This document shows, in pieces, positions 5,232 through 64,000 of a stretch of DNA of 64,000 nt. Within the stretch, counting starts at the first letter, position 1. The number at the start of each line of letters is the position of its first letter. This stretch comes from Alphaproteobacteria bacterium (GTDB lineage: Bacteria > Pseudomonadota > Alphaproteobacteria > RF32 > CAG-239): the NCBI GenBank assembly GCA_045602545.1, contig JAZSBR010000036.1, positions 31,279 through 95,278 of the forward strand, written 5' to 3'. Under the pieces are notes generated by a model. It worked only from the letters and a program-made list of their open reading frames with translations, ran no database searches and was not told where the DNA came from. A program made the position numbers and the translations under genes.

Positions 5232-5498
5232 TTTATTTTCCTTCTTTAAAAATTAAAACTAATTTAGCATAAAAGAAAAATCGCCCCAAAAGGCGACTGG
5301 AAGTTGGAAACTATACTTATCAGATAGTGTGATTTATTCGCAAACCGAGCGGTTTCTTATTTCGTCACCTTCCAATCATACGAATATGACTGAAAATTAA
5401 ACTATCCTCACATAAGGATGGATAAGTATGAGGTTTCCACACCTCCGAGCCTTTTATGCTCATTTCCGATTTTAGCTGATTTTACTATTTAAAGTCAA
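5232..5498 (-). promoter_or_regulatory. class-1 structured leader, copy A, with its promoter
   Basis: Minus strand: TTGACT(5498-5493)-18 nt-TAAAAT(5474-5469), then an RNA starting near GAGCAUAAAAGGCUCGGAGGU and ending in UCGCC/GGCGA hairpin + UUUUUCUUUUAUGCU (plus 5266-5297). It aligns with copies at 23915-24164 and 30889-31125 with compensatory changes. Confidence 0.7.
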
Positions 5499-11301: not shown

Positions 11302-11612
11302 TTTAGTTCTCCTATTAAAAAAGGTTGTTTAAAAATTCAAATGCCCTCTGTTTTTACAGCGGGCGGGGAGTTGAACAATCATGTTGACAGTAATGACTCC
11401 TACATCCTTTAGCATTTAAAAATACTTGTACATACGACATAGGCTCCCCAACCAAAGTGGGGATTTTGGATACAAAAAAACAGCATCCGAGGGACACTGA
11501 TTTAATGTACCTCTGTCAACAAAGAGCCGTTCAAAGCCCCGAACCCGAAGGTTCTTAAAATGATTTTCATCATTCTGCATGGTATGCTAGCAGAAAAAAT
11601 AAAAAATGTAAA
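11302..11612 (-). promoter_or_regulatory. class-2 structured leader, copy E, with its promoter
   Basis: Minus strand TTTACA(11612-11607)-17 nt-TAGCAT(11589-11584). Conserved blocks GAAUGAUGAAAAUCAUU, GAACCUUCGGGUUCGGGGCU, AUCCCCACUUUGGUUGGGGAG, and AACUCCCCGCCCGCUGUAAAAACAGAGGGC + U-rich tail. Confidence 0.7.
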
Positions 11613-11636
11613 GTAAAATGTGTTATGTCAATAAAA

Positions 11637-18026: not shown

Positions 18027-19009
18027 TAAAGAGAGCCTTCCTCGGAATTCGTTTTATCTCCGAACCACGGCCAACCGAATTTATACCAAGGCTTGTCAGA
18101 AGATGTTTCCGAAGAAGTTTCGGATATTTCTTCCGGTTCTTCAACAGTTTCTTCTTGTTCGGCTATATTTTCGCTTTTATCACCGAACCACGGCCAACCG
18201 AACTTATACCAAGGCTTATCAGAAGATGTTTTAGTTTCCTTATCTTCTTTAGAAATATTTGATTTTTTAGTTTTTTCTATTTTGTTCATAACATCTTCAG
18301 CCTTAGCCGTCCATTTGCTGTTCGGGTAATTCATCTTTAAGATTTTATAATAGCCTTTGGCATATTTATTCATCCCCAAAATTGCATAAATTTCAACCTC
18401 GCGATATAAAGCTTCTTCAATTTGCACGGTTTTTTGATATTGTTCCAACACAACATTAAAGCGGTTTAATGCCGAAAGGTAGTTTTTGTTATTCAAATAA
18501 TAACGCCCGATAATCATTTCCTGAGCGGCCTTGTAGTCTTCTGCCAAATTTATTTTTTGCAAAACATCTTTGGTGTATTTGCTATCGGGATAAAGAGTTA
18601 CCAAGCGCTCAAATGTTTCTTCAGCCATTCGCGTATTCAGTTGGTCTTTTTCCGCCGAAGAAATCTGGTCATAATAGCTCATTCCTTTCAAGTAATAAGC
18701 ATAATCCGCATCCTTATTTCCCGGATGATATTTCAAAAATCTGTCCGCCGCCATAATGGCATCATCATACGATTCGTTTTTATAATAAGCATAAGCCGCC
18801 ATCAGTTTGGCTTTGACGGCCCATTTTGAATAAGGATGCTCTGTTTCAAGCTGTTCAAATTGTTCGGCTGCTTTTTTATATTTTGTTTCTTCTAAGTTGT
18901 TGTATGCCTTATTATAAAGATTTTCTGCCGGCAGGTTAAGATTTTCATCCTTAGAGGCGCAAGCAGAAATCAAAAGTCCCAAAATAAGTATTGCAGATAT
19001 TTTTTTCAT
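18026..19009 (-). CDS. bamD: outer membrane protein assembly factor BamD (lipoprotein) with duplicated aromatic C-terminal motif
   Basis: Lipobox LLISAC. TPR-like YfiO body (…PYSKWAVKAKLMAAYAYYKNESYDDAI…). Tail contains SSDKPWYKFGWPWFGDK twice. Confidence 0.85.
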   Translation of the reverse strand: MKKISAILILGLLISACASKDENLNLPAENLYNKAYNNLEETKYKKAAEQFEQLETEHPYSKWAVKAKLMAAYAYYKNESYDDAIMAADRFLKYHPGNKDADYAYYLKGMSYYDQISSAEKDQLNTRMAEETFERLVTLYPDSKYTKDVLQKINLAEDYKAAQEMIIGRYYLNNKNYLSALNRFNVVLEQYQKTVQIEEALYREVEIYAILGMNKYAKGYYKILKMNYPNSKWTAKAEDVMNKIEKTKKSNISKEDKETKTSSDKPWYKFGWPWFGDKSENIAEQEETVEEPEEISETSSETSSDKPWYKFGWPWFGDKTNSEEGSL

Positions 19010-19879: not shown

Positions 19880-20283
19880 GGTGAATGGCAACTTATAAGC
19901 CGGGTTCTGTATGTCAGAGGTTTATAAAAAAACATAACACGATAGCTATTCATCTGCGTCGAATGTCGCCATCCGACTGGTGCGACCTACCTTTGGAGAG
20001 GAACGGAAACCTTCCCTTTATTCGGACAAGCCGAATCCCCGTTTTTGGTCTTACATCAGACAGGGTTTACCTCAAGCCATAAATATTGCTACTTATGCGG
20101 TGAGCTCTTACCTCGCCTTTTCAACCTTACCGATTTATGATAAAATCGGCGGTAATTTTCTGTGGCACTGTCCCGTGGATTACTCCAGCCAGACGTTATC
20201 TGGTGTCTTGTTTCCGCGAAGCCCGGACTTTCCTCATTATCGGCTTTTACTTGCCGTAACGCAGCCATCCGGTTACCATTCAC
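19880..20283 (-). ncRNA. rnpB: RNase P RNA, bacterial type A
   Basis: Minus strand contains the universal GAGGAAAGUCCGGGCU (plus 20221-20236) and ACAGAACCCGGCUUA (plus 19893-19907). P1 pairing is GAAUGGUAAC (5', plus 20272-20281) with GUUGCCAUUC (3', plus 19882-19891). Also …GGUAAGAGCUCACC… and …GGUAAACCC… modules. Confidence 0.92.
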
Positions 20284-22552: not shown

Positions 22553-23914
22553 TCATTTCTTGAAAGTCAATATAACGAAGTTATTATCATCATTCAACAA
22601 CGGCGCTGCTTCGGCAGGGGTATATTGAATGCGGTTGCAAAATCCACCCATATCTTTATAACCGGCACCACAGCCATTGGCAGAACTTATGCAAACTCCG
22701 TCTTTGCCTAAATAGCCATCTCCGCAACCCTTGGATTCACTAACACAAAGATTATCCTTTAAATAGAAGCCTGCTCCGCAACCTTCGCCATCTTCTCTGG
22801 CAACACATTCATCACCGACTTGTTTTTCGCCATAACCGCAACCAAGATCTGCAGGGAAACAAGATGGGTAACCACTGCTGTTTGTTCCTGCAATGTAGCC
22901 TTCTTTGCATTCAGTAACACAGACTCCATCTTGTAAAGAATATCCTGTATGACATTTTACACAATAAGCATCAGAACTAGATTCACAAACATCTTGCACA
23001 CATTTTTTTTTATTTTTGTATGCTGTATTTGAAACGACATATCCACTAGGGCATTCTTCTACACATCTACCTTCCATCAAAATAAAATCGCCCGTACATC
23101 TATTACACATACCGCCATATATCCAATTTGAAAGACAGTTTACATCCGTGCAATAATTAAATGTTTTACCAGAATAAGGATAAACATAGTTTCGTGTATT
23201 TTCTTTCTGCAGACATTCTTCTTTCGTTATACACCTTCCTTCAATATTATAATAACCATCTTCACATTCCGAGCATGTTCTTGAATCTGTATATGAACTG
23301 CAATGTTTCATTTCTGCGTATTTTTCCTTTAATAAACAGACACCATTAATTTCCAAATAATATCCGCTGTTACAGCCTGTACATTTACCTGTTGTTGCAT
23401 TATACCATGAGCAACCTTCCGGATTCTTTTTACAATTTCCATTTCCCATATAATACCCGCTATTACAACCACCGCATTTGCCTTCATTCACATTGTACCA
23501 TGAACAATTTTCCGGATTCTTTTTACAAACTCCATTTTCCATATAATATCCGCCTTGACAATAAGCGCATTTTCCACCGCTTACACAAGTACCACAATTT
23601 TCCGAACAATTTGATGAATCTATTATTTCTTCACATTTTCCATTTATCGATTCGTATCCGTCTTTACACTCTTCGCAATAAGTATAGTCATCTTCACAAG
23701 CATCACCATCATCATAACAATTCGAATCCTGACATCTTACACATTTTCCCTCGGCATTATGTCCATATCCTTCATCCGAACAGTCATTGCAATATCCGGT
23801 TTCTTGGTCACATGAATCCTCGCTGTAGCAAGGAGAACTGCCGCACATATAATCTGCATAAACAACTCCAGAAAACAAACTGCTTACACATAACATCAAA
23901 AAAAGCTTTTTCAT
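22553..23914 (-). CDS. secreted cysteine-repeat protein with family C-terminal module (paralog 3)
   Basis: Signal peptide MKKLFLMLCVSSLFSGVVYA. About 60 Cys in repeated C-x2-C…GYY…G-x-C units (e.g. CGGCNSGYYMGNGNCKKNPEGCSWYN). C-terminus NRIQYTPAEAAPLLNDDNNFVILTFKK. Confidence 0.8.
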   Translation of the reverse strand: MKKLFLMLCVSSLFSGVVYADYMCGSSPCYSEDSCDQETGYCNDCSDEGYGHNAEGKCVRCQDSNCYDDGDACEDDYTYCEECKDGYESINGKCEEIIDSSNCSENCGTCVSGGKCAYCQGGYYMENGVCKKNPENCSWYNVNEGKCGGCNSGYYMGNGNCKKNPEGCSWYNATTGKCTGCNSGYYLEINGVCLLKEKYAEMKHCSSYTDSRTCSECEDGYYNIEGRCITKEECLQKENTRNYVYPYSGKTFNYCTDVNCLSNWIYGGMCNRCTGDFILMEGRCVEECPSGYVVSNTAYKNKKKCVQDVCESSSDAYCVKCHTGYSLQDGVCVTECKEGYIAGTNSSGYPSCFPADLGCGYGEKQVGDECVAREDGEGCGAGFYLKDNLCVSESKGCGDGYLGKDGVCISSANGCGAGYKDMGGFCNRIQYTPAEAAPLLNDDNNFVILTFKK

Positions 23915-24164
23915 CTTTTACTTCCTTTTCTTTTAAAATTATTTCCATTAGCACAAAAGAAAATCGCCACATAAATTGGCGACTGGAAGCTGATAACTAT
24001 TTCGTATAATATAGTGTAACATATTTGAAGAATTACTTCTTATTCTGCTACCTTCCAGCCATAAAGGATGGAAATTTTTTTAATATTTATACGAAAGAGG
24101 CTATCAGACCTCCGAGCCTTTTATGCTCAAGAAGTATGCTAGCAGAAAAAATCCCTTTTGTAAA
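23915..24164 (-). promoter_or_regulatory. class-1 structured leader, copy B, with its promoter
   Basis: Minus strand TTTACA(24164-24159)-17 nt-TAGCAT(24141-24136), then GAGCAUAAAAGGCUCGGAGGU… …CUUCCAGUCGCCA-loop-UGGCGAUUUUCUUUUGUGCU. Confidence 0.7.
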
Positions 24165-24213
24165 GCAAAAAAACGGAAATAATATAATGAAGGTATATTA
24201 ACTTACTGATAAT

Positions 24214-30888: not shown

Positions 30889-31125
30889 TTGATTTTTAAT
30901 TTTTTTTCTGTTAACATTTTTTTAGAGCATAAAAGGCTCGGAGGTATACGAACCTCTTGCAAATATGTCCTTTCATTAAGGATAGTTTTATTTTCAGTCA
31001 TACTTGTATGGCTGGAAGGTGATGAAATAAGAAGGCATGGCTTTGCGAATAAATCACACTATCTAATTTGCAATAGTTCGTAACTTCCAGTCGCCTTTGG
31101 GGCGATTTTTCTTTTATGCTCAAGT
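30889..31125 (+). promoter_or_regulatory. class-1 structured leader, copy C, with its promoter
   Basis: TTGATT(30889-94)-17 nt-TAACAT(30912-17). RNA runs from AGCAUAAAAG (30926-35) to its complement CUUUUAUGCU (31111-20). UCGCC/GGCGA hairpin + U-tract at 31090-31115. Confidence 0.7.
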
Positions 31126-31380
31126 GGCGTAATTTTTAAGAAAAGGACTGTTAAAATGAACAATGTTTTTAATAGAGTGCAAATGCTCGAAACAAATGAG
31201 AATTGCAATAAATTTTCCAAGAGTGTTTCGTATGAAACACTCGTCGGCGGTACGACGACAATCGGCAGGGAGTATGAACAGAATCAGCGGTTGAGTGAGG
31301 GCAGTGCGGATAAACCGCTTTCGGCGGTCGGCACTTTGACATCGTTGCTGTGCAACTCCGCCAAAGTGGAGGAAAAATGG

Positions 31381-32265
31381 TTGCAAATATCGCCTGTATT
31401 TAGGTTGGCAAAAATTTTTAGCTTAGTGGCGGTTTTATCCGTTGGTATGATGAGCGAATCATGGGCAGACTGTTGGGCTACTGAAAACAATCTGATTAAA
31501 AGCTGCTACAATACCTGGGAACCCGGAAAGCCAGACAATTGCGGAGATGGTTGTACTTATACCTACAATAACGGCAAACTAACCGTAACCGCCACTAAAC
31601 CTGGTGCGGTTATACAGCAAGGTATTTTTGCTCTAAGGTATTATGAGGAAAAAGCTGGTTTTCCCAATATAACTAACGTCGAAATAGCCGGTGAATTTGA
31701 TACTATCGGAGGACATGCTTTTTTGAATAATGCCGCTACCATATCCGGAAAAGGCGGAGTTTTATACACAAATAGCATTGATTATAATGCCTTTGGCAAC
31801 GATAATACTTTAACAGGAACAATAATTGTAAGTGATAAACAAACTACTTTAGGAGAAGGACCTTGGTATAATGCAACTCTAAACGCAACCATGATTCTTC
31901 CTCCGACAATTAAATCCATTTCCGGTTGGGCTCTTTATGGTTTGAATTTAGGCTCAAATGCCAAAATTTATTGCGGAGTTGAAAATTGCGAAGAATTGTT
32001 CAGTAATGTTAATTGTGATGCAATCGATGAACAATATTCGACACGGTGTAAAAATAACTTAAACACATTACTTTCTTCCGGTAAATTGCTTGCCTATCCC
32101 GACGGTTGCACGAAAATGGGCGCCTCGGGTTGCACAAAATGCAAAAACGAAAACTTCAAATTAAACGATGGTGAATGCGACCGCTTACGCTATACTCCTG
32201 CCGAGGCGGCGGAGGTGCTGACTGATGATAATAATAACAGTGTGACGATTACGTTTAGAAAGTAA
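31381..32265 (+). CDS. secreted LRR-like protein with family C-terminal module (paralog 4); ORF-track start 31156 probably too far upstream
   Basis: In-frame TTG at 31381 sits 8 nt after GGAGG and yields a classical signal peptide (M)QISPVFRLAKIFSLVAVLSVGMMSESWA. C-terminus DRLRYTPAEAAEVLTDDNNNSVTITFRK. Degenerate BspA-like repeats. Confidence 0.7.
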   Translation: MQISPVFRLAKIFSLVAVLSVGMMSESWADCWATENNLIKSCYNTWEPGKPDNCGDGCTYTYNNGKLTVTATKPGAVIQQGIFALRYYEEKAGFPNITNVEIAGEFDTIGGHAFLNNAATISGKGGVLYTNSIDYNAFGNDNTLTGTIIVSDKQTTLGEGPWYNATLNATMILPPTIKSISGWALYGLNLGSNAKIYCGVENCEELFSNVNCDAIDEQYSTRCKNNLNTLLSSGKLLAYPDGCTKMGASGCTKCKNENFKLNDGECDRLRYTPAEAAEVLTDDNNNSVTITFRK

Positions 32266-40656: not shown

Positions 40657-43600
40657 ATGAAATATTCTAGAACTGCCCTTGGTTTATTGAATGCACAATA
40701 TCGCAGTGTGTTGCGTAAGTGCTTTTTGATAAACATGGGGCTTTTTGCGTTAGGCGCAATTGCCACTCCGGCGAAGGCTGAATATACTACAGTTGATTTA
40801 TCAACAGTATATCCAAGCGGAACAGCAACTGAAACTTTGAAGTACAAGGATGCTACAAATCAAAGCACTAAATATGTTTGGGACGCTGAAAACATAGTTA
40901 TTAGCCCAACGGCAGGTGATAGCAGAGGTATTGACTTAGGTAACATAAGTTATAATGGAAGTGAACCTTACATTATGGATATAGGTGGTGAGAATACTGA
41001 AAGTATTACTATTACTCCGACAAACGGATATGCCATAACTGTATTCAAAGAGAGTGAACTAAACTTGGAAGCTGATGAAATAACGGTTAATGGTATAGTC
41101 CATGCTTCCGATAATACAATGGCTGATTTGGCTAAACATGCGACGGTTAATATTAAAGGTGGTGAGGTTGTTTTAAATGCTGACACTACCTATAAAACTG
41201 CTGTTGAAGCTATGAGTCAAGGTATTGTTAATATTGAAGGCGATACGACAATTACTGGTGACAAGGCAATTTTATCCCGTGGTAACGCTCAAATTAACGT
41301 TAATACAAATAATAACGACAATAAAACTGTTATCAATGGTGATATTGTTTTTGATTATGATCAAGATACTTCGGGTTCTCCAATTGATGCATATGTCAAC
41401 GTCAATTTGAATGGAGAAGATTCGTCTTGGACCGGTAATACATACGTTGATTGGAATACCAAGCCTGAAGAAAGTAAGTTGAATGTTACAAAGTCAACTA
41501 TTACTTTGAGTGATGGTGCCACTTGGAATGCTACAAAAATTGAAAACAATGATGTAGCCACTGATGGTAGCCGTTACACTTCAATCAATAACCTCAACGT
41601 TGATGGTGGTAATGTTAAGTTTAATGAAGCCGGTGCGCAGGTTCAAATTGATAACTTAAAAGTTGGCGCTGATGGTGTAAATGTTACTAAAAATGCTGAT
41701 TCAGATAGAATAGAAGTAAAAACAACAGCTGATTTACGTAATGGTGTATCTGATAGTTATGCCGATATTATCAATGTAAATGATGGTGCTAGTCTTTATG
41801 TTGATGCTGATGCAAGTGGTAATCTTGATGCTGTTGGTGGTAATAAGGAATACATCAAACTTGAAGGTGTTACTTTATTGTCTGCTATGAATTCCGGATC
41901 AACCATTAACACTGCAGGATATGACTTATCATCAGGTAATGCTGCAAAATCATTGGGAGTATATTATGCTGATACTTCAACCGATGGTTCCGGTAACATT
42001 GTTTTAGGTACTAAGCAATCATATACTGACCTTATCGGTATTGAGCAGAATGGTAACTACATCAAAGCTTATAATGCTGCTGATGCTGAAAACACATCTG
42101 TTTCAGCTAACCTGAGCGCATTAGATAATCAAGTTTTTGAAAATGAAACAAACATTGCTCAAAACACAGCTGATATTGCAACAAACACAGATGCGATTGC
42201 ACAAAATACTGCTGCTATTGCCGGTAAGCAAGATACTTTGTCTGAAGCACAGTTGGCAGCAGCTAACTCTGGTATTGATTCAACTAAAGTATCAACCTAC
42301 GATGGTTATGCTGCTCAAATCAGTGCAAAAGCTGATGTGGCAACAACTTATACAAAAGATGAAGTTAATGCTTATGTTGCTGACAATGCCGTTCAAACTG
42401 TTACAACAGGTACAGCCAATGGCACTATTTCTGTTGATGGCTCAAATGTTGCGGTTAAAGGCTTAGGCTCTGCTGCTTATACAGAATCTTCTGCTTATGC
42501 AACAGCGGCTCAAGGCACATTGGCAGAAACTGCAGTTCAGAGCGTTGTTAAAGGTGATAACAACGGTGAAATTAAAGTTGATGGCACAACAATTAAAGTT
42601 TATGATGATGCTGCTCTTCAAGCTGCAGTTGAAGCTGCGCAAACAACAGCTACTAATGCACAATCTACAGCAACTGCTGCTCAGACTGCTGCAAGCACGG
42701 CTAATAGTAAAGCCACTACTGCACAATCTACAGCAACAGCTGCTCAAACTGCTGCCGCTGCCGCTCAAACAGCTGCTAATACTGCCCAATCAACAGCTGA
42801 AGCTGCTCAAACTGCTGCAAGCACAGCTGATGGTAAGGCGGTTGCAGCTCAATCTGCTGCTACTGCCGCTCAAACGACAGCAAATACGGCTGTGACAAAT
42901 GCAGCCTCAGCTCAATCTGCTGCTGAAGCTGCGCAAACAGCTGCTGATACTGCTAATTCAACAGCAAATGCAAATAAGACAGCTATTACAACCTTGAATG
43001 GCAGTGCAAGTCAAACAGGTTCTGTAGCAAATTCTATTGCAACAGCTTTGACATCATACAGCACAACAGATCAAATGAACAGTGCAATCAGTACAGCTAT
43101 TTCAAACGCTGCTTCAAACTATGATGCAGCAGGTTCTGCTGCTACAGCTGAGCAAAATGCAAAAGATTATGCTGATGGTGCTATAGCTGATGAAGTTACT
43201 GCTCGTAACACAGCTATTGGTGCAGCTAAAACTGAAATTTTAGCCGGTACAGGTTATGCCGGTTCTGGTTTGGAAACTGCAGTTGCTGGTACAGCTAATG
43301 CTCAAATTACTGCTTCTTTGAATGGCACAGATGCCGGCACAATCGGAAAAGCTATTTCTGATGCACAAGCTGCTGCTGAAGCTACCGCTGCTACTGCACA
43401 AGATACGGCTGATGCTGCATTATTGAATGCAGGTGGTGCTGCTTCTGCTGCTGCCGCTGCTCAAACAACAGCCAACCAAGCTAAAACAGCTGCTGAAAAT
43501 GCTCAGACTTCAGCTGATGCAGCTAAGGCATCTGCTGATGCTGCACAAGTTACTGCCGATACAGCAATAGCAAATGCAGGTGGTGCTGCTTCTGCTGCTG

Positions 43601-46600
43601 CCGCTGCTCAAACAACAGCCAACCAAGCTAAAACAGCTGCTGAAAATGCTCAAAGCACAGCTGATACTGCTGTCGCAAATGCCGCAACTGCACAAGACAC
43701 AGCTAATGCTGCATTATTGAATGCAAGTGGTGCTGCTTCTGCTGCTGCCGCTGCTCAAACAACAGCCAACCAAGCTAAAACAGCTGCTGAGGTTGCTGAT
43801 GGTAAAGCCGTTGCAGCTAAAGCATCTGCTGATGCAGCCCAAGTTACAGCTGATACAGCAATAGCAAATGCAAGTGGTGCTGCTTCTGCTGCTGCCGCTG
43901 CTCAAACAACAGCTAATCAGGCAAAAGACAGAGCAGATCATGCTTATGCATTGGCTGAAAAAGCAGAAGGTGATGCCGCACAGGCTCAAACAGCTGCTAA
44001 TCACGCACAAGACACTGCTAATGAAGCAAAAGAGGCTGTCGGTGATGTTTCTAAATTTGCTCAAAGCACAACAGGCAATATCTCTAACTCTGTTCCTGGT
44101 TCAGGTACAAATGCAACCAACGCTTCTGCTGCTATCGCCAATATAGACGCTACAATCGGTCAAATCCATGGCTTGGCTTCTACTATTACCGATGCTGCAG
44201 GTGCTAAAAACTTAGAGCAAGGCTCAACAGTAAGCGGTCACTTGCTTGCTTTAGCAGCTTCTATCGGTAACAGAACTGATTATACCGGTGCAAATTATCT
44301 TGTAAATAACCAAGATATTGCTACATCACTTACTGTTTTGGATACCGCTATCGGCAATGCTGAAGATAAGAATGATATTCAAGATAATTCTTTGTCAGAC
44401 ATCTATGGCAAGTTGAACGGTGGTAATTATAATAAGACTACCGGTGCTGTTACAGATGCAACTGCTTTATCAACAAACTTCACAGCTACTAATGTTACAG
44501 CTGCTGCAAATGAGTTGTTGACAGATATCACAGTAACCGCTGATGGTAACTACATTACAGCCGGTGCTGATGTTAAAGGCAATTTGAGTGCTTTGGACGG
44601 TCAAGTTAAGGACAATGCCGATAATATCGCTTCAACAATGGCTTTGGTCGGTACAACTTCCGCACCGAAGACGGGTCATGGCATCTTAGCTGGCAAGACC
44701 ATTACTGGTACTGCCGGTACAGATAACCTCAATATGGTTGATGCCATTGATTTTGTCGCTGCCAATGCGGCCGGCTTGAATGTGGATAATGTTTACTCCG
44801 GTAAAAATACATTCGGTACAACATCAGGTAGCCAAGTTATCATTGATAACGGCGGCAACTTGACGGTTAACCATGATTTGACAATCGGTAAAGCAAACGC
44901 TATCAGCAGCACAGCAACCGGCAAATTGGATATGGGTGGCAACACATTGCTCAATGTCCAAGGCTTGACCTTGACAGACGGCTCAGGCCACACAGCAACG
45001 TTGGCAGCTACCGAAAACGGTATCAACACCGGAAACGCTGACCTTGACGTTGGTACAGGTGCTTTAAAATCTCAAACTTTGTATGTCGGTACAACGGATC
45101 AATTCTCAGTTGACGGATCAGGTAATGTCAGTACATCAGGTACATTGGATGTGACGGGTAAAGCAACTGTCGGCTCACTTGATATCGGTACAACAGGCAA
45201 GGGCTTTGATGCAACCGGCAACTTGACTGCAGGTACAATCAATGCAACTGGTATCGACACCACAACTGCCAATACAGTTAAACTCGGTGGTACAGGCTTT
45301 ACAACGGCTGTTACCGGCGATATGACGGTCAGCGGTACGACGACTTTGACTGATTTGACCGTGACGGGTGATACCACTTTGGATGACTTGACGGTCAACG
45401 GTAATACGAGTTTGAAAAATACTACCGTGGACGGTACTTTGGAAGTAACCGGTGGTGCTATATTCGGTGATAAGACAGATCAATTTGTTGATATCACGGA
45501 TGGTGCTATTACCGTTCATGATGGTACAGGTTCAACCAATATCACAGCAAGTATTGCCAACAATGGCAATATCACAACCAAAGGTGCTTTAGAGGTGGCA
45601 GGTCTTGCTTCACTCAACGGTGGCATCAATGTCAATGACAAGTTTGAAGTTAGCGGTACAGATGGTACGGTTACATTAACCAACGGTACAAACACTGCTT
45701 CTATTGCTATGACTGACGTTAAGGTTGCGACGGATGATCCGCTCAATCCTGAATCTGTTACTAATGTTATGAAAGTAACGGGAACAGGTTTGTTTACGGG
45801 TGATGTTGTTTCTGAGTCTGGATTTACTATTGCTCAGAAGAATGGTGTCGATCAGTATGAAGTTAAATTCTCTGTTGATGACGATGGCAATATCGATACA
45901 TTAGGTACATTGTCTGTTGCCGATGACAAATTCACGGTTGACGGTTCAGGCAATATGTACGCCGCAGGTGATGCTGATATCGACGGCGACTTGTCAGTTG
46001 GTGATAAGTTCAGCGTAACTTCTGCTGGTGGTTCGTTCAGCGCAGCTGGTGGTGAATTTAAAGTCGATGGTGACGGAAATACCAAAATAAAAGGTGCAAT
46101 GGCCGCCGGTAAAACAGGTACGGAATTTAAAGTCGGCTTAAGCGGTAACATCTCTGCCGCGTCAGGCAACTTTACTGTTGATAAAGACGGTAACGTAACA
46201 GCTCAGGGTGACTTGGGTGTGTATGGTACATCTTGGTTGAAAAACACCAATGTTGATGGTGCTTTGGCTGTGACAGGTGATACAACTGTTGGTCAGAACT
46301 TCGCCGTTGCCGGTAATTCATACTTGCACAACACTTCTGTTGACGGCGCTTTAGCTGTTACAGGTACATCTTGGTTGAAAAACACCAATGTTGATGGTGC
46401 TTTAGCTGTGTCAGGTGATTCTACAGTTGGTCAGAACTTCGCTGTTGCCGGTACTTCTTACTTGCATAACACTGTTGTTAATGGTGATATGGCTGTTAGC
46501 GGAACAACAAAGACAACTGCTTTGACATTTAATGGTGAAAGCTATGTTGCCGCTATGGATCAAGGCGATGCCGCTATTACTAACGGTACTGTTGATGATC

Positions 46601-47679
46601 AGGCTAAACGTACAATGGCTACAAATGCAACTGTTGCCAAGACGGTTGGCAATTTGAATTCATTGACCACAGCCGCTAACGGCGTTACCAGTGCAAACGA
46701 TGTTGCTGATGCAATCAACAGCTTGGGAACAAACGTTGAAACCGCTACCGGCGGAACTTTCGCAGCTAACGGTGTATGGACAGGCAGTATAGACGGTAAA
46801 GTTGACGATGGTACAGGTTCGTTGGTTGATAGAGCCGTTGCTTATGGCACAATCACTGATAATAATATCTTAGATGTTGTTGATAGCTTGTATGCTAATG
46901 TTGGCAATACTGCTGTTACCGGTACAAACGATAATATCTTGAGCACAAATACGGTTAACCAAAACTTAGATCGTATTGACTCTAAGATTGGCGATATCAG
47001 AACTTTGAATGGTAATGCCTTGAATAAAGGTACGACAACTCAGCCGACAACCGTTGTTGCTGCTTTGCAGAACATTAACGACTCTATCGGTAAAGTTCAT
47101 GGCTTGTATGATGGTTCAACTGTTAACAGCACAACTGTTGCTTCAACAGTTAACGGAAACTCTAACTTGATGGCTGTTGCCGGCGGTGTTTCTACTGCTG
47201 AAGACCATTTGGTAAGCTTAGATAACGCTATCGGTGACAGAACATTGGTAAGCAAAAATACGGCTATCAATGATGCAATGAGCGGCGAATCTGTTGCTTC
47301 CGGTTTGAAAGCTGCCGGTGATGCAATTGGTGATATGAACTTCACTGGTTCTCACTATGTTGCAGGCAACAACGACTTGTCCGGTGCTGTAAGAAGCTTG
47401 GATAGCAACCTCTATCGTGTTGAATCTGATTTGCGTGATTTAAGACGCGACTTCAGACGCGGTATGGCTTCTATGTCTGCTATGTCTGCTTTGGTTCCTA
47501 ACCCGAGAGCTCACGGAAATACTTCGCTTGCTATCGGTACAGGTGCTTATGACGGTCATACAGCTGCTGCTATCGGTGGTTTCCACTATCTCACAGACAA
47601 CATTATGCTTAATGCCGGTGTGGCTTGGGGTAACTCCAGCGACGCTGCATATCGCATGGGTGTAACGTTCTCTTGGTAA
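40657..47679 (+). CDS. trimeric autotransporter adhesin (YadA-type C-terminal anchor), 2340 aa
   Basis: Long signal region MKYSRTALGLLNAQYRSVLRKCFLINMGLFALGAIATPAKA, Ala/Thr/Gln-rich coiled-coil stalk repeats, and C-terminal …MASMSAMSALVPNPRAHGNTSLAIGTGAYDGHTAAAIGGFHYLTDNIMLNAGVAWGNSSDAAYRMGVTFSW (YadA anchor pattern ending in an aromatic residue). Confidence 0.9.
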   Translation: MKYSRTALGLLNAQYRSVLRKCFLINMGLFALGAIATPAKAEYTTVDLSTVYPSGTATETLKYKDATNQSTKYVWDAENIVISPTAGDSRGIDLGNISYNGSEPYIMDIGGENTESITITPTNGYAITVFKESELNLEADEITVNGIVHASDNTMADLAKHATVNIKGGEVVLNADTTYKTAVEAMSQGIVNIEGDTTITGDKAILSRGNAQINVNTNNNDNKTVINGDIVFDYDQDTSGSPIDAYVNVNLNGEDSSWTGNTYVDWNTKPEESKLNVTKSTITLSDGATWNATKIENNDVATDGSRYTSINNLNVDGGNVKFNEAGAQVQIDNLKVGADGVNVTKNADSDRIEVKTTADLRNGVSDSYADIINVNDGASLYVDADASGNLDAVGGNKEYIKLEGVTLLSAMNSGSTINTAGYDLSSGNAAKSLGVYYADTSTDGSGNIVLGTKQSYTDLIGIEQNGNYIKAYNAADAENTSVSANLSALDNQVFENETNIAQNTADIATNTDAIAQNTAAIAGKQDTLSEAQLAAANSGIDSTKVSTYDGYAAQISAKADVATTYTKDEVNAYVADNAVQTVTTGTANGTISVDGSNVAVKGLGSAAYTESSAYATAAQGTLAETAVQSVVKGDNNGEIKVDGTTIKVYDDAALQAAVEAAQTTATNAQSTATAAQTAASTANSKATTAQSTATAAQTAAAAAQTAANTAQSTAEAAQTAASTADGKAVAAQSAATAAQTTANTAVTNAASAQSAAEAAQTAADTANSTANANKTAITTLNGSASQTGSVANSIATALTSYSTTDQMNSAISTAISNAASNYDAAGSAATAEQNAKDYADGAIADEVTARNTAIGAAKTEILAGTGYAGSGLETAVAGTANAQITASLNGTDAGTIGKAISDAQAAAEATAATAQDTADAALLNAGGAASAAAAAQTTANQAKTAAENAQTSADAAKASADAAQVTADTAIANAGGAASAAAAAQTTANQAKTAAENAQSTADTAVANAATAQDTANAALLNASGAASAAAAAQTTANQAKTAAEVADGKAVAAKASADAAQVTADTAIANASGAASAAAAAQTTANQAKDRADHAYALAEKAEGDAAQAQTAANHAQDTANEAKEAVGDVSKFAQSTTGNISNSVPGSGTNATNASAAIANIDATIGQIHGLASTITDAAGAKNLEQGSTVSGHLLALAASIGNRTDYTGANYLVNNQDIATSLTVLDTAIGNAEDKNDIQDNSLSDIYGKLNGGNYNKTTGAVTDATALSTNFTATNVTAAANELLTDITVTADGNYITAGADVKGNLSALDGQVKDNADNIASTMALVGTTSAPKTGHGILAGKTITGTAGTDNLNMVDAIDFVAANAAGLNVDNVYSGKNTFGTTSGSQVIIDNGGNLTVNHDLTIGKANAISSTATGKLDMGGNTLLNVQGLTLTDGSGHTATLAATENGINTGNADLDVGTGALKSQTLYVGTTDQFSVDGSGNVSTSGTLDVTGKATVGSLDIGTTGKGFDATGNLTAGTINATGIDTTTANTVKLGGTGFTTAVTGDMTVSGTTTLTDLTVTGDTTLDDLTVNGNTSLKNTTVDGTLEVTGGAIFGDKTDQFVDITDGAITVHDGTGSTNITASIANNGNITTKGALEVAGLASLNGGINVNDKFEVSGTDGTVTLTNGTNTASIAMTDVKVATDDPLNPESVTNVMKVTGTGLFTGDVVSESGFTIAQKNGVDQYEVKFSVDDDGNIDTLGTLSVADDKFTVDGSGNMYAAGDADIDGDLSVGDKFSVTSAGGSFSAAGGEFKVDGDGNTKIKGAMAAGKTGTEFKVGLSGNISAASGNFTVDKDGNVTAQGDLGVYGTSWLKNTNVDGALAVTGDTTVGQNFAVAGNSYLHNTSVDGALAVTGTSWLKNTNVDGALAVSGDSTVGQNFAVAGTSYLHNTVVNGDMAVSGTTKTTALTFNGESYVAAMDQGDAAITNGTVDDQAKRTMATNATVAKTVGNLNSLTTAANGVTSANDVADAINSLGTNVETATGGTFAANGVWTGSIDGKVDDGTGSLVDRAVAYGTITDNNILDVVDSLYANVGNTAVTGTNDNILSTNTVNQNLDRIDSKIGDIRTLNGNALNKGTTTQPTTVVAALQNINDSIGKVHGLYDGSTVNSTTVASTVNGNSNLMAVAGGVSTAEDHLVSLDNAIGDRTLVSKNTAINDAMSGESVASGLKAAGDAIGDMNFTGSHYVAGNNDLSGAVRSLDSNLYRVESDLRDLRRDFRRGMASMSAMSALVPNPRAHGNTSLAIGTGAYDGHTAAAIGGFHYLTDNIMLNAGVAWGNSSDAAYRMGVTFSW
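43429..43930. repeat. four tandem 147-bp (49-codon) repeats inside the adhesin stalk
   Basis: gca(g/a)gtggtgctgcttctgctgctgccgctgctcaaacaacagc… begins at 43429, 43576, 43723 and 43870 (exact 147-bp period). Encodes …GGAASAAAAAQTTANQAKTAAENAQ…. Confidence 0.85.
46225..46500. repeat. two tandem 138-bp (46-codon) repeats in the adhesin
   Basis: ggtacatcttggttgaaaaacaccaatgttgatggtgcttt… at 46225 and 46363. Encodes GTSWLKNTNVDGALAV.GD.TVGQNFAVAG.SYLHNT. Confidence 0.8.
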
Positions 47680-50390: not shown

Positions 50391-51503
50391 TTATTTTTTG
50401 AAGGTAATCACTACAAAATTATCGTTGCCGTCATGAAGCCATTTACTTGCTTCCGCCGGTGTCCAGCGCTTCTTTGAAAAAGGTAATTGAGCATAGCAAT
50501 TTCCGTTATAATCGGCATAACCGCTGGCACAAGTTATATTCCCGCTTTCCGGTAATTCGGCACATTCTGTTCCGGTATGGTAATAACTGACATTTTCGCT
50601 ATCACGAGGTGTGTTAAAACATTCTTTGTGATCATCGGCATCAAAGATAATATTGTTACCGCTGATATAAGAAGCTCTTGCGGCAAATTCTGCTATTTTT
50701 TCTTTGCAAATTTCCTGATTTCCTTTGCATTTGAATGTAACAGTTCCATTATCAGAATTATCATTTAAGGCATCATCGTCCCAACCGCTCATATCAATAG
50801 AATCAGGAATAATAATTTCAATATCACCATACGTACGAAGCGCATCACCATCAGTCCAAACAAGAGAATCAGGAATCTCTAAGGTTCGTAAATTATAAGC
50901 ATCACAAAGTGCAAGATTTCCAAGTTTTTCTATTTTTGGCATATTCACGCTTGTTAAAGCATTAGCAGCTTCAAAAGCATAGGCTCCTAATTCAGTAACG
51001 TTCGGCAATTCCACTGTGGTTAAACTCTGCAAATTATCAAAACACTCATCTTCAATAGTGGTTATATTATTGGTGTTTAGTGTTGTTAAATTAGGGACAT
51101 TATCAAAAGTTTCACGAGCGAGAGCCGTAATATTATCACCAAACTCAATTTCGGTTATTTTTTCTTGTTGGTCTCCCCAAGCAATTTCATTATCGTCATC
51201 ATCGTATACCGAATCGCAGCCGGAAAACTCTCCACTTCCATCGATAATCAGCTTTGTTCCTTCCCAAGTGCAGGTTGTTTCTGCAAAGGCTGTGGACAAG
51301 TTGAGGGAAAGAAGGAAGGCAAGGACTGTCATCTTGAGGGTCGAACGAAGTGAGGGCCCGTAAAGATCTCTTTTTGCAGAGTAACATTGCGTTTTGGCTC
51401 CGTCATTAACAACAGGCTCTACACTTGCTCCGGAGATCTTGACGCCCGCTTCGGGGCTCAAGATGACAGCGGATTCATTTTTTTCATTATTTATATCAAA
51501 CAT
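50391..51503 (-). CDS. secreted BspA-type LRR protein with family C-terminal module (paralog 5)
   Basis: C-terminus KKRWTPAEASKWLHDGNDNFVVITFKK. The N-terminal 57 aa are near-identical to paralog 2 and contain the 144-bp palindromic element. Signal-like MTVLAFLLSLNLSTAFA follows. AGGAG SD before the ATG at 51503. Confidence 0.8.
   Translation of the reverse strand: MFDINNEKNESAVILSPEAGVKISGASVEPVVNDGAKTQCYSAKRDLYGPSLRSTLKMTVLAFLLSLNLSTAFAETTCTWEGTKLIIDGSGEFSGCDSVYDDDDNEIAWGDQQEKITEIEFGDNITALARETFDNVPNLTTLNTNNITTIEDECFDNLQSLTTVELPNVTELGAYAFEAANALTSVNMPKIEKLGNLALCDAYNLRTLEIPDSLVWTDGDALRTYGDIEIIIPDSIDMSGWDDDALNDNSDNGTVTFKCKGNQEICKEKIAEFAARASYISGNNIIFDADDHKECFNTPRDSENVSYYHTGTECAELPESGNITCASGYADYNGNCYAQLPFSKKRWTPAEASKWLHDGNDNFVVITFKK
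51326..51469. mobile_element. second copy of the 144-bp nested-palindrome element, in frame in paralog 5
   Basis: ctgtcatcttgagggtcgaacgaagtgagggcccgtaaagatctc … gagatcttgacgcccgcttcggggctcaagatgacag. Collinear with 11121-11264 apart from a few substitutions. Confidence 0.6.
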
Positions 51504-51828
51504 TTCAGTTCTCCTATTAAAAAAGGTTGTTTTTAAAATTTAAATGCCCTCTGTTTTTACAGTGGGCGGGGAGTTCAGAAATCATACAAGAAGAAATGAC
51601 TGTTAAGATCTTTAGCTATAAGCCTGAACATACACCTTAACCTCCCCATCCAATGCGGGGATTTAAAACCAAAAAAAGCGCCTTCAACCTATACCAAAAA
51701 AGGATAAGCAGAAAAGACACCATTTGGGTATCTTCTTGTAAGAGCCTCTGACAGCCCCGAACCCGAAGGTTCTGAAATGATTTTCATCATTCTGTTCATA
51801 AACTAGCAGAAAAAATAAAAAATGTAAA
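51504..51828 (-). promoter_or_regulatory. class-2 structured leader, copy F, with its promoter
   Basis: Minus strand TTTACA(51828-23)-17 nt-TAGTTT(51805-00). Same conserved blocks as copies D and E. Terminator-like GCCCACUGUAAAAACAGAGGGC (plus 51546-51567) + U-rich tail. Confidence 0.65.
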
Positions 51829-51868
51829 GAAAAAAAATCACAATGGTTTATTATATAACCTTTGCTCA

Positions 51869-58672: not shown

Positions 58673-58709
58673 CCGAATAATAAATAAGGTTTTAAGTTTT
58701 CTTTTTTGC

Positions 58710-59015
58710 TTTACATTTTTAATTTTTTCTGCTAGCATAAAAGAAGAATGATGAAAATCATTTCAGAACCTTCGGGTTCGGGGCTGTAGCAGGCTCTATA
58801 TTGTTGGTGATACGTTAAAAGGGTATCACTTGGTGATACTTTTTTTTGTATCTAAAATCCCCACTTTGGATGGGGAGATTATGACGTATGTACAGGCTTT
58901 TTTTAAAGCTAAAGGTTATAATAGTCATTGCCAACAATATGATTTGCTAACTCCCCGCCCGCTGTAAAACAGAGGGCTTTTGAATTTTTAAACTGTTTTA
59001 AGAAAGGACAATGAT
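58710..59015 (+). promoter_or_regulatory. class-2 structured leader, copy D, with its promoter
   Basis: TTTACA(58710-15)-17 nt-TAGCAT(58733-38). Conserved blocks as in copies E and F. Terminator-like GCCCGCUGUAAAACAGAGGGC (58957-77) + UUUUGAAUUUUU. Confidence 0.7.
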
Positions 59016-59867
59016 ATGAAAAAACTAATTTTATTAACGAGTGTAGCTATATTGTGCTTATTAAATGTATCCGAATCATCGGCAGATGATGAAATAAACT
59101 GTCTAACCGGACAACAATCATGCGGAACAAATTGTTGCTGGTCGGTGGAAAATAAAAAGCTGACTATAACCGGCGGTGCCGACGGTTCCATCGGTACTAT
59201 GGATGATTACGATAATGCTTCTGGAGGAGAAGGACACAATACTCAATGGACAGGTCTAGATATAAGAGCAATTTATGTGTCAGGTTTGGAAAATATTGGG
59301 ATTCAAGCATTCCGAGATTTAAAAAAAGTCACAAATATAACCATAGGCGATTCGGTCGAGCGTGTTAGTAATGCTGCGTTTGATAATGATTATATGTTGC
59401 AATATGTTGATTTTGGTGATGCTGTAATAAGCATTGGAGAATATGTTCTCCAAGATACTCCGAGACTCATACAAATCATTGTCCCTGATACCTTGAATGA
59501 TATAGCTCTGCAATCTTTCGGGAATGGAGATCTTGTCGGAAGAAATATTCAAATAATCTGTCGTGGAGATAAAGTGTCTTGTTCGAATATTTATGAAAAA
59601 CTGTCTGAATATTCATCTAAAAAAGGACAAACATATGACGCAACAAGTCAATTGTTTTACGCAAATTATGAGCAGTGTGCCTCAACAAGCTATTTTTGGG
59701 ATGGAGCAAAATGCGTGCGTGAGCCGGATTTAAGCAAACGCAAGTGTTGCTCATCATGCAAAGATATGGGAGGATGGTGCAATCGCATTCAATATACCCC
59801 TGCAGAAGCCGCACCGTTGTTGCATAACGACAACACAAATGAAGTGACGATTACTTTCAAGAAGTGA
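59016..59867 (+). CDS. secreted BspA-type LRR protein with family C-terminal module (paralog 6)
   Basis: Signal peptide MKKLILLTSVAILCLLNVSESSA, LRR_5-like units, C-terminus NRIQYTPAEAAPLLHNDNTNEVTITFKK. Confidence 0.85.
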   Translation: MKKLILLTSVAILCLLNVSESSADDEINCLTGQQSCGTNCCWSVENKKLTITGGADGSIGTMDDYDNASGGEGHNTQWTGLDIRAIYVSGLENIGIQAFRDLKKVTNITIGDSVERVSNAAFDNDYMLQYVDFGDAVISIGEYVLQDTPRLIQIIVPDTLNDIALQSFGNGDLVGRNIQIICRGDKVSCSNIYEKLSEYSSKKGQTYDATSQLFYANYEQCASTSYFWDGAKCVREPDLSKRKCCSSCKDMGGWCNRIQYTPAEAAPLLHNDNTNEVTITFKK

Positions 59868-62476: not shown

Positions 62477-63208
62477 ATGGATAAACACCAAAGAGCATTT
62501 CATAGAGAAGCATTCAGCTATATGGGAGATTCTATCAGAGAAAAGTATAACAGTCTTGTTGTTAAATTAAATCAAACTTATGGGACAAATTTCAAATATG
62601 TTAAAGAAGTTTCCAATGGTGATATCGGACAATTAGCACGCAGTGTTATGGACAATATAGATGAATTGAAGTCTTTAAAGTCACAAGATTCAGATTCGAA
62701 TACATTTCGAGGTACGGATTTCTTAAAAACTCTTGCTGATAATTTGAAAGAAGACAAAGATCCTCACAGCTTATATCATGAAGAGAAAACATCTGAAAAG
62801 AGAAAAACAGCTAAAGATGTTATCGCTTTTTACCTTACACTTGAAAAATTGAGTACTGAGGGAGTTCATGTACCTGAAGGATTAGGTTATACAACAGATG
62901 AAAACTTAATAGATATACTTGGAAAATCGATAAGCAGAGATAAGGGATTAACGATTGATGATGCATCTCCTGAACTCAAAAAAGCTCTATTGAGTGAACC
63001 TAAAGAAGTTAGAGATGTATACATAGGACGTGAACATTTTTATTTTATGAATAAGGCACAAAAAGAAAGAGTGACTGATAAGGATATAGAGCATATTGAT
63101 TATTCTTCTAAAGATATTGATATAGCTGGAATTATAGAAGGTATAAAAGCAAGAGAAGCAAATTTAAGCAATGCTAAAGCTTCAAAAGGTAAGGGAATTG
63201 CTGATTAA
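62477..63208 (+). CDS. hypothetical protein (no family recognised)
   Basis: 243-aa ORF with AGGAGA SD, a terminator downstream, no signal peptide or TM segment, and locally AT-richer codon usage. Confidence 0.5.
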   Translation: MDKHQRAFHREAFSYMGDSIREKYNSLVVKLNQTYGTNFKYVKEVSNGDIGQLARSVMDNIDELKSLKSQDSDSNTFRGTDFLKTLADNLKEDKDPHSLYHEEKTSEKRKTAKDVIAFYLTLEKLSTEGVHVPEGLGYTTDENLIDILGKSISRDKGLTIDDASPELKKALLSEPKEVRDVYIGREHFYFMNKAQKERVTDKDIEHIDYSSKDIDIAGIIEGIKAREANLSNAKASKGKGIAD

Positions 63209-63231
63209 TCGAATCTTTGAAAAAAAATACG

Positions 63232-63262
63232 ACGGCGGAGAACAAAAATCCGCCGCTTTTTG
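63232..63262 (+). terminator. rho-independent terminator
   Basis: CGGCGGA-GAACAAAAA-UCCGCCG followed by CUUUUUG. Confidence 0.75.
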
Positions 63263-63312
63263 TTGTCTTTGGCAGAATAAAATAGGTTGTTTTCGGTTGA
63301 AGTTTTTTTTCT

Positions 63313-63598
63313 TTGACATTTAAAAATTTTTTGATAAAATTATTGTCATAAATGATGGAAGTCTGCCAAAGATATAAGTCATTTTAGGGCGTGAGAACCC
63401 TCTAATCAATAAGTAGTCGCTTCAATGTTGCGACTTTTACATAACCGATATTTCGCTTTGAGCGGATGTCGGCGCAATAAGGCTCTTTAGCGCGAAAACG
63501 TCGAGCCGGTTTTTGCTTATTGATTAACGGTTTCTCAACATCCGCCCGCCTTTTAAGACGGGTTTGTTTTTAATTTGTAACTTTAATGAGGTGTTGAA
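63313..63598 (+). promoter_or_regulatory. promoter plus ~250-nt structured leader with terminator-like hairpin upstream of the pilin-like gene
   Basis: TTGACA(63313-18)-16 nt-(TGa)TAAAAT(63335-40). Long-range 11-bp helix UAAUCAAUAAG(63403-13)/CUUAUUGAUUA(63516-26) encloses three hairpins. CCCGCC-UUUUAA-GACGGG + UUUGUUUUU at 63545-63571. GAGGUG SD before the ATG at 63599. Confidence 0.6.
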
Positions 63599-64000
63599 AT
63601 GAGAAAAAATAATGAAATCGGTCGCTCTATGATTGAAATGCTTGGTGTTCTGGCAATAATCGGGGTTTTATCAGTCGGAGGAATCGCCGGCTATTCCAAG
63701 GCGATGGAAAAAATGAAGATAAATAAGCATATAAATCATATAACTGAAATTGTGAATGCCGTGCAAACTACATATATGTCGCAAAAAAATTATTCCGGAT
63801 TAAATTGTCAAGTTGCGCATGATGTAGGTATTATTCCGGATGAAATGTGGAATAATGAAGCGTCTGATTGTTACAATGAGTGGGGAGATAATATTAATGT
63901 TGATGGTGTGCATTCAGTTGGTCATTGGGGGGATTATTTTTATATAAAAGAATGGGATTGGAGTTTTTCTACTGCGGATTGTGTAGAAATAATAACAAAA
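63599..64000 (+). CDS. type IV pilin-like / pseudopilin protein (prepilin-type N-terminal domain), truncated by window end
   Basis: Not in the ORF track (no stop in window). My translation is MRKNNEIG|RSMIEMLGVLAIIGVLSVGGIAGYSKAMEKMKINKH…: a short basic leader, Gly cleavage site, Glu at +5 and a hydrophobic helix, which is the class III (prepilin) signal. Confidence 0.75.
   Translation, partial: MRKNNEIGRSMIEMLGVLAIIGVLSVGGIAGYSKAMEKMKINKHINHITEIVNAVQTTYMSQKNYSGLNCQVAHDVGIIPDEMWNNEASDCYNEWGDNINVDGVHSVGHWGDYFYIKEWDWSFSTADCVEIITK

Follow-up and report, generated by a model that had tools for sequence, protein, structure and literature searches.

Leader-dependent control of surface-structure operons is exerted by NusG paralogues (RfaH with ops/JUMPstart, UpxY of Bacteroides, and LoaP), whose recognition sites are short elements in DNA or RNA and whose action is processive over long operons. 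Among riboswitches, the cyclic di-GMP (c-di-GMP)-II class of Clostridioides difficile has type IV pili and surface proteins as targets (PMC11477304). Here we analyzed a leader that precedes a type IVb pilin-like gene near the end of a 64,000-nucleotide (nt) stretch of DNA, called the window below, from an Alphaproteobacteria bacterium (assembly GCA_045602545.1, contig JAZSBR010000036.1, positions 31,279 to 95,278). The leader of the pilin mRNA, taken as positions 63347 to 63575 of the window (forward strand, ~225 nt), contains a junction domain of ~190 nt and is, as judged by sequence comparison, a member of type A, an uncatalogued family of leader RNAs with a conserved structure that has no entry in Rfam. 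It is with high confidence a conserved, cis-acting structured leader, and it probably acts as a transcription attenuator in cis with a riboswitch-like terminator/antiterminator arrangement.

The pilin leader, its fold, and its family

A sigma-70-type promoter is located at 63313 to 63340 on the forward strand, just where the first-pass annotation of this DNA had placed it, and consists of the -35 element TTGACA (63313 to 63318), a 16-nt spacer, and the extended -10 element TGaTAAAAT (63332 to 63340; TAAAAT at 63335 to 63340). With a score of 11/12 and its TG extension, it was the top promoter-like site between 62300 and 64000. This promoter is kept in the closest homologue (locus L001), and TTTACA-type promoters are found at equal distance in other leader copies. 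The transcript probably starts near 63347, and ~250 nt of noncoding RNA lie between the promoter and the pilin-like open reading frame (ORF). The Shine-Dalgarno (SD) sequence GAGGUG (63588 to 63593) and the pilin-like ORF starting with the ATG at 63599, both named in the same annotation, are indeed present on the forward strand; the ORF has 134 codons inside the window and is cut by the window end at 64000. Its relatives carry PF05307 and PF08805, and its orthologue P0001, with 206 amino acids, is 93% identical.

The leader folds with a minimum free energy (MFE) of -77 kcal/mol (z = -3.6), and 1 of 200 shuffled sequences folded equally well. The MFE fold holds every helix listed in the first-pass annotation plus two more, P0 and P1. 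The 5'-terminal hairpin P0 (63350 to 63384; AAAUGAU ... GUCAUUU and an inner stem) is followed by the 5' strand of P1 (63387 to 63400), which is made up of the segment r0 (GGGCG, 63387 to 63391; P1a) and UGAGAA-CC (63392 to 63400; P1b) and has 63529 to 63547 as its partner. The 11-bp long-range helix noted before, here P2, pairs UAAUCAAUAAG (63403 to 63413) with CUUAUUGAUUA (63516 to 63526). P1 and P2 are stacked and enclose a four-way junction with three hairpins, which were found within 1 to 2 nt of where the annotation had put them. Hairpin 1 (AGUCGC-loop-GCGACU) spans 63415 to 63435. Hairpin 2 (CCGAU...GUCGG, 63445 to 63472; -13.7 kcal/mol) contains the segment r1 as its 5' arm (63445 to 63457) and the segment r2, GAGCGGAUGU (63460 to 63469), in its 3' arm, and it is joined by CGCAAUAA (63473 to 63480; family consensus GAAUAA) to hairpin 3 (GGCUC...GAGCC with an inner GCG/CGU stem, 63481 to 63507), the inner part of which departs from the family consensus GC-CAAAUAA-GC with its pairing retained. 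Downstream of P2, the 3' strand of P1b (GG-U-UUCUCA, 63529 to 63537) leads into a tail, r3 (ACAUCCGCCC, 63538 to 63547), that could pair with r0 (P1a), with r2, or, via its last 3 nt, with the 3' arm of the terminator. The latter, the CCCGCC/GACGGG hairpin of the first-pass annotation (63545 to 63562; -7.8 kcal/mol), is there together with its U-tract UUUGUUUUU (hairpin and tract, 63545 to 63574), and this GC-rich element is located 15 to 25 nt 5' of the SD. Two versions of the native fold were isoenergetic at -72.0 kcal/mol, one with the P1a register GGGCG:CGCCC, which invades the terminator, and one with the register GGG:UCC and a full terminator. Besides P0 and P1, the annotation had not listed that the segment before the terminator can base pair with the 3' arm of hairpin 2.

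No counterpart of the leader was found in Rfam 15 (4,227 families). At the gathering score, the sole family in the whole window was RNase P (class A RNA at 19880 to 20280 on the reverse strand, 262 bits), and neither the leader nor eight typical type A homologues had a match; the covariance model for c-di-GMP-II (RF01786) likewise did not match the window or these eight copies. Even at E ≤ 10, a search of 63200 to 63700 returned nothing credible, GEMM-I and GEMM-II included. The faint likeness to GEMM-I that had been suggested in the first-pass annotation is not supported: a covariance-model match was lacking, and the linker CGCAAUAAGGC that had prompted the comparison is the family's own conserved GAAUAAGG junction, which recurs in type A and in type C, a further leader type described below. 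Nor does the leader have the pair of adjacent hairpins, docked by a tetraloop-receptor contact, and the conserved ligand-binding junction that are typical of GEMM-I; its hairpin loops vary in length and sequence, and its junction consensus is GAAUAAGG. Weak matches to SQ2397 (24 bits) and sRNA-Xcc1 (22 bits) were far under their thresholds and were rejected. The match to SQ2397, on the opposite strand, arose because it overlaps a hairpin of the upstream gene (62477 to 63208); this hairpin, CGGCGGA/UCCGCCG at 63233 to 63262 with an A-run and a U-run on its flanks, is likely the (bidirectional) terminator of that gene. In the literature searched, no description of the leader motif was found.

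Homologous leaders do exist in related genomes. The relatives of the window pilin come from metagenome-assembled genomes of rumen and gut that are labelled "Alphaproteobacteria bacterium," and the window DNA is present in bovine gut metagenomes. At the closest orthologous locus (L001 to L004), the homologous leader has compensatory changes in hairpin 1 and in P2 (AAUCAAUAAG/CUUAUUGAUU to AAUCAACGAAU/AUUCGUUGAUU), with three such changes in P2 of L001 relative to the window. In 78 pilin loci taken from GTDB genomes, nhmmer detected further copies (L009, L066, L078, and L028), and a scan of metagenome contigs for the exact 3' block ACGGTTTNNNAACATCCGCCCGC gave at least 120 stretches. Across all loci, there were at least 95 distinct type A copies in gut and rumen Alphaproteobacteria. 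A covariance model, R1, was built from 23 copies with a hand-drawn structure and with the window left out; it matched 81 type A copies, where this count and the row and gene counts given below for type A refer to the matches listed. R1 found the window copy at 63323 to 63586 (E = 6.6e-32). With 108 bits, compared with 140 to 229 bits for most type A copies, and with its 11-bp P2 and altered hairpin 3, the window copy differs from the others and is, together with L001, a divergent branch of type A.

The fold is backed by covariation in type A. In an alignment of 80 distinct rows, fitted to the R1 model (a caveat for the figures that it yields), 93.4% of the cells were paired, compared to 82.6% after shuffling, and double changes occurred at 28 of 56 pairs (516 cells). 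None of 500 shuffles attained any of these measures, and controls with slid partners were 31 to 45% paired. Covariation was seen at all six modelled pairs of the P0 equivalent, at all nine modelled pairs of P2, and at three pairs of P1b (CG/GC/AU, GC/AU, and AU/GC/CG), and all seven modelled pairs of hairpin 1 had double changes. Hairpin 2 is conserved with wobble changes only, the outer stem of hairpin 3 is conserved with wobble changes, and the terminator stem is conserved in the 80 copies with wobble changes and with UA/CG covariation at its top pair. The GAAUAA columns of the junction are almost invariant in type A alignments, and the motif is also found in type C. Since G-U pairs are present, the RNA strand is the sense strand of the gene. 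Both the homologues and the covariation had been named in the first-pass annotation as checks on its reading, and both speak for it. When the type A copies were aligned with plain MAFFT and folded with RNAalifold, P1b, hairpin 1, and the terminator were recovered; P2 was missed because of gap placement in this alignment, and another partner was proposed for r2. An origin of the P1/P2 inverted repeats by DNA inversion or from a miniature inverted-repeat transposable element is disfavoured: the core has one orientation in 81 of 81 type A copies, and G-U pairing is confined to the sense strand.

Competing pairings around the terminator-like hairpin

Two other types of leader, B and C, were first seen by repeat analysis of the window. 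Types A, B, and C, which together make up a wider superfamily of leaders, have a common scaffold of P0, a purine-rich r0, a covarying P1b, a covarying P2, the hairpin r1:r2, a pyrimidine-rich tail r3, the terminator r3:r4 (r4 being the 3' arm), and an SD. Their cores differ, with r2/r3 being GGAUG/CAUCC in type A, GGGGAG/CUCCCC in type B, and GGAAG/CUUCC in type C. The inner domain of type B is unlike that of type A and has a UCCCCA/UGGGGA hairpin and the tail CUCCCCGCCCGC; in type C, the order of the core is GGAGGU ... GGAAGG ... ACUUCC.

In all three types, r2, which lies in the 3' arm of hairpin 2, is a complement of r3, and the complementarity extends to the first 3 to 4 nt of the 5' arm of the terminator (r2 and r3 are GGACGGAUGU and ACAUCCGCCC in type A, GGAUGGGGAG and CUCCCCGCCC in type B, and GGCUGGAAG and CUUCCAGUC in type C). 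Indeed, 9 to 10 of the 10 positions were paired in 81 of 81 type A rows; positions 1, 2, and 4 to 10 pair in 73 to 81 of these rows, and position 3 is A.C in 57 and G-C in 24. The r2 of the window, GAGCGGAUGU, pairs with r3 at 9 of 10 positions. Between types A and B, four positions are changed on both strands with the pairing retained (GGACGGAUGU:ACAUCCGCCC versus GGAUGGGGAG:CUCCCCGCCC). Also within type B, GACC goes with GGUC and GCCC with GGGU or GGAU, and the duplex energies are -11 to -22 kcal/mol.

Type C gave the clearest covariation for r2:r3. In an anchor-based count, the four variable positions occurred in 17 distinct combinations, and of these 68 positions, 58 were Watson-Crick pairs, 10 were GU pairs, and none was a mismatch; swapped partners had a mean of 2.0 of 4 Watson-Crick pairs, compared to 3.4 of 4 for the true partners. 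When 33 type C leaders were aligned with plain MAFFT, the helix r2:r3 (9 bp) was 100% paired (297 cells) with 22 double-change cells, neither the count nor the score was matched by any of 500 shuffles, and slid controls reached at most 53.5%. Columns 291 to 293 of r3 covary with r2 and also with the 3' arm of the terminator, and the hairpin r1:r2 covaries as well. These anchor-based and alignment counts replaced a first swap test of r2:r3 (11-mers, GU allowed), which was barely discriminating because the starts of the terminators had been called in differing registers. The energies of the helices are of similar size, with -9 to -16 kcal/mol for hairpin 2, -8.5 to -10.7 kcal/mol for r0:r3, -14 to -16.5 kcal/mol for r2:r3, and -8 to -15 kcal/mol for the terminator. 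From this pattern of r1:r2, r2:r3, and r3:r4, we infer the signature of a candidate anti-antiterminator, antiterminator, and terminator.

Two mutually exclusive states of the leader can be envisaged. In the OFF state, hairpin 2 (r1:r2), the proposed anti-antiterminator, would be closed, r3 would rest on r0 (P1a), and the terminator r3:r4 would form and halt RNA polymerase. In the ON state, r2 would swap r1 for r3, displacing r0 under P1b, the terminator would be blocked, and the pilin gene would be transcribed. The balance between OFF and ON would be shifted by an effector, for which the conserved junction and loop elements (GAAUAAGG, AAAUAAG, CCCUUU, and GUUU) would be the sensor. We lean slightly towards conditional termination with r0, r1, r2, r3, and r4 in exactly these roles. 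The effector may be a small molecule, for example a second messenger, or an RNA-binding protein, and its assignment to the small molecules is tentative.

Downstream genes and further leaders in the window

Of the 95 distinct type A copies, 89 could be judged from their downstream sequence, and 79 of these are followed by an ORF on the same strand that has an SD. In nearly all of the 79, the ORF starts 36 to 57 nt past the 3' block (49 nt in the window), directly behind the U-tract, and no other promoter was found in the gap between leader and ORF in these assessable copies. The first-pass annotation had tied the leader to a pilin gene, and a pilin-like ORF is indeed what follows it in the window, but the leader is not pilin specific: pilins account for 16 of the 79 downstream ORFs. 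Other downstream products are autotransporters (PF03797), an outer-membrane beta-barrel protein (PF13505), porins, TRL and PEGA lipoproteins, a Stealth/GT8 (capsule-type) transferase, and an EcoRI-type adenine methylase, and BspA-type proteins are also among the products of leader-preceded genes. Since the same leader stands before many surface-protein genes, it would coregulate the cell surface. At three loci (L088, 477 to 979; L142, ~280 to 574; and L167, 3128 to 3633), two complete type A units of promoter, leader, and terminator in tandem, 271 nt apart and with differing P2, precede one lipoprotein gene.

The window itself contains three type B and three type C leaders. The type B leaders, at 11320 to 11583 (reverse strand), 51523 to 51803 (reverse strand), and 58737 to 59000 (forward strand), precede the BspA-type leucine-rich repeat (LRR) genes 9973 to 11301, 50391 to 51503, and 59016 to 59867, respectively. 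The type C leaders, at 5256 to 5491 (reverse strand), 23940 to 24158 (reverse strand), and 30895 to 31130 (forward strand), precede the secreted-protein genes 4206 to 5231, 22553 to 23914, and 31156 to 32265, respectively. R1 detected all six at full model length with 20 to 44 bits, and 1.2 Mb of pilin loci gave it 53 more sites, ~25 of them directly 5' of a pilin gene. The three types have the same classes of downstream genes, and leaders of types A, B, and C are interchangeable among pilin paralogues; in L005 and L007, it is a type B leader that stands before the pilin gene. A promoter box with almost no variation, TTTTGCTTTACATTTTTAATTTTTTCTGCTAGCATA, is found before leaders of differing types (58704 to 58739 on the forward strand and 11583 to 11618, 24135 to 24172, and 51804 to 51837 on the reverse strand) and, in a weaker form, at 63303 to 63336 on the forward strand. 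Therefore, promoter and leader move as a cassette.

The six ORFs behind the type B and C leaders share a C-terminal motif of ~25 amino acids, (R/K)(W/Y)TPAEAA..(L)..(D)(G/D)N(D/N)N.V..TFKK, which may be a sorting or secretion signal of this clade. Within the LRR gene 9973 to 11301, 69-nt units form an in-frame tandem repeat (10375 to 10802, reverse strand). Another gene, 18026 to 19009, has an in-frame 57-nt duplication, SSDKPWYKFGWPWFGDK, at 18052 to 18231 (reverse strand). At 40657 to 47679 (forward strand), a protein of 2,340 amino acids is encoded that has many Ala/Gln/Thr-rich repeats (147-nt and 21-nt periodicities) and a C terminus resembling a trimeric-autotransporter anchor; no leader detectable with R1 lies upstream of it.

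Probable attenuation, its alternatives, and known systems

The riboswitch- or attenuator-like reading of the first-pass annotation is thus supported in broad terms, apart from the likeness to GEMM-I: the leader is conserved and covarying, it stands upstream of a same-strand ORF, it has a hairpin with a U-tract before the ribosome-binding site (RBS), and it has a conserved alternative pairing that overlaps this hairpin. Several observations weigh against a switch of this kind. Within type A, neither r2 nor r3 varies, and for most copies the search pattern itself dictated r3; therefore, the type A antiterminator has only complementarity and the comparison with types B and C to argue for it. Forcing r2:r3 into a nested fold costs 19 kcal/mol (-52.8 versus -72.0 kcal/mol), and a simple nested alternative was rejected on these grounds. 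To reach the ON state, the leader would thus need either a pseudoknot-like arrangement, in which r2 replaces r0 under P1b, or kinetic control; by our estimate, linkers of 10 nt together with hairpin 3 could span the 18 bp. Furthermore, r2 has a third conserved partner, the one proposed by RNAalifold (GGACGG:CCGUUU plus UCGGC:GCCGA, 99.5% paired), and therefore, switching may in reality be more complex. The terminator hairpin of the window is weak (-7.8 kcal/mol) and was not flagged by a consensus terminator scan. The downstream genes are very mixed, and seven related leaders (one of type A and three each of types B and C) are found in 64 kb; both the mixture and the density are unusual for a metabolite riboswitch. 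Transcript data for this organism were uninformative, as the window leader was not found in the RNA runs searched and contigs of the bovine metatranscriptome matched conserved genes only. Contigs reading through from leader and terminator into the coding sequence were found for two other copies (one contig of 151 nt for the L099 copy and two for the L114 copy), and they show cotranscription at most.

The same attenuator architecture might respond to a protein (LicT/SacY-, PyrR-, or TRAP-like, or a CsrA-like GGA binder) or to another RNA. The very large and heterogeneous regulon would suit such an effector, and so would three sequence-divergent sensor cores on one expression platform and the repeated AAUAAG motif. 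Also, type A has GGAUGU in r2 and type C has GGA motifs in r0 and r2 that are like CsrA-type sites, for which the consensus from systematic evolution of ligands by exponential enrichment is RUACARGGAUGU, but r0 of types A and B has no GGA motif. Since protein-dependent attenuators are usually far smaller and the loci examined yielded no candidate protein gene linked with the leaders, we consider a protein or RNA effector unlikely.

Distinctly unlikely, in our view, is a constitutive structured 5' untranslated region (UTR) without any switching, in which P0 and the compact fold would shield the mRNA from 5'-end-dependent decay, as does the ompA leader, the U-rich stretch would aid translation, and the hairpin would be a leaky terminator or a processing barrier. 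Such a stabilizer has no need for a four-way junction of 190 nt whose junction nucleotides do not vary or for a GC hairpin with a U-tract before every gene, and it leaves the covariation of r2 with the first nucleotides of the terminator unexplained, although it would account for a covarying P0 at the extreme 5' end, for strong promoters in front of genes for abundant surface proteins, for promoter-leader cassettes swapped among unrelated genes with up to 7 per 64 kb, and for the existence of read-through fragments.

If the leader were an independent gene for a trans-acting small RNA (sRNA) of ~215 nt with its own promoter and terminator, the pilin would be expressed by leakage only. The promoter, the terminator-like 3' end, and the tandem copies with their own promoters, 271 nt apart in L088, L142, and L167, are in line with this, and the C/U-rich CAUCC, CUUCC, and CUCCCC resemble anti-SD seeds of known sRNAs. 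However, these candidate seeds are base paired rather than exposed, the sequence of P2 is free to vary, and the orientation and distance of the ORF are fixed in 79 of 89 copies with a gap devoid of other promoters, making an sRNA gene very unlikely.

That the leader is a divergent GEMM-I or GEMM-II riboswitch for c-di-GMP is hardly credible, as tandem copies and a similar regulon of pili and surface proteins known elsewhere (PMC11477304) are set against the lack of any GEMM match even at E ≤ 10 and against a four-way junction within two long helices in place of the two-hairpin fold of GEMM-I or the pseudoknot fold of GEMM-II. A crude regular-expression scan of 2.2 Mb of clade DNA for GG[DE]EF, EAL, and HD-GYP signatures found none, and c-di-GMP as the effector is only an analogy drawn from the regulon.

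If attenuation by the leader is the right reading, it adds an unrecorded, abundant class of regulatory RNA with at least 120 metagenomic matches and 7 related copies in a 64-kb window, and this class would govern pili, adhesins, porins, and lipoproteins, that is, genes for contact with the host or with neighbours in common uncultured gut and rumen bacteria. As an orphan riboswitch or attenuator, it would have an unusually clear and testable switch of four competing segments backed by covariation, and it would give a handle on the signals sensed by uncultured gut and rumen Alphaproteobacteria. The interchangeable promoter-leader cassettes suggest a modular way of placing unrelated genes under one control. 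A bolder and doubtful extension is that the three leader types are a new superfamily of riboswitches with ~100 copies per genome, whose four-way-junction aptamers would sense one or more global signals, for example a metabolite from the host or the gut or a nucleotide second messenger, and whose strand-exchange platform (r0/r1/r2/r3/r4) would switch most of the surface proteome in widespread uncultured gut and rumen Alphaproteobacteria.

Among known systems, the c-di-GMP-I and -II riboswitches (GEMM-I, RF01051, and RF01786) resemble the leaders in their surface regulon, many copies per genome, occasional tandems, and transcription-termination platforms, here putative; unlike them, the leader has a different fold and does not match their covariance models, and diguanylate cyclase signatures were not seen in the sampled clade DNA. 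With terminator/antiterminator riboswitches and attenuators in general (purine, c-di-GMP, T-box, pyr, and trp), the leader has in common its place in the 5' UTR, a conserved candidate sensor fold, a terminator-like hairpin before the RBS, an r2 complementary to the 5' arm of the terminator, and an r1 that would sequester r2. It differs in the place of its candidate antiterminator strand, which is internal to the domain and separated from its partner by ~75 nt and by P1b and P2, so that the ON state would have to be pseudoknot-like, in the fourth competitor r0, and in having no leader peptide. A trp-type peptide was considered, as an AUG or GUG opens r1 and a stop codon is often found in GAAUAA; it was rejected because the frame is not conserved and takes all three values relative to r2, and the lengths vary and an SD is missing. 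A T-box leader was rejected as well, there being no Rfam match and the downstream genes encoding surface proteins rather than aminoacyl-tRNA-related functions. As in the NusG-paralogue systems, long leaders stand before many genes for surface or extracellular products, with premature termination as the control point, here a candidate one. In contrast to those systems, the window leader is a 190-nt covarying fold with its own terminator-like hairpin, and its family stands mostly before single genes.

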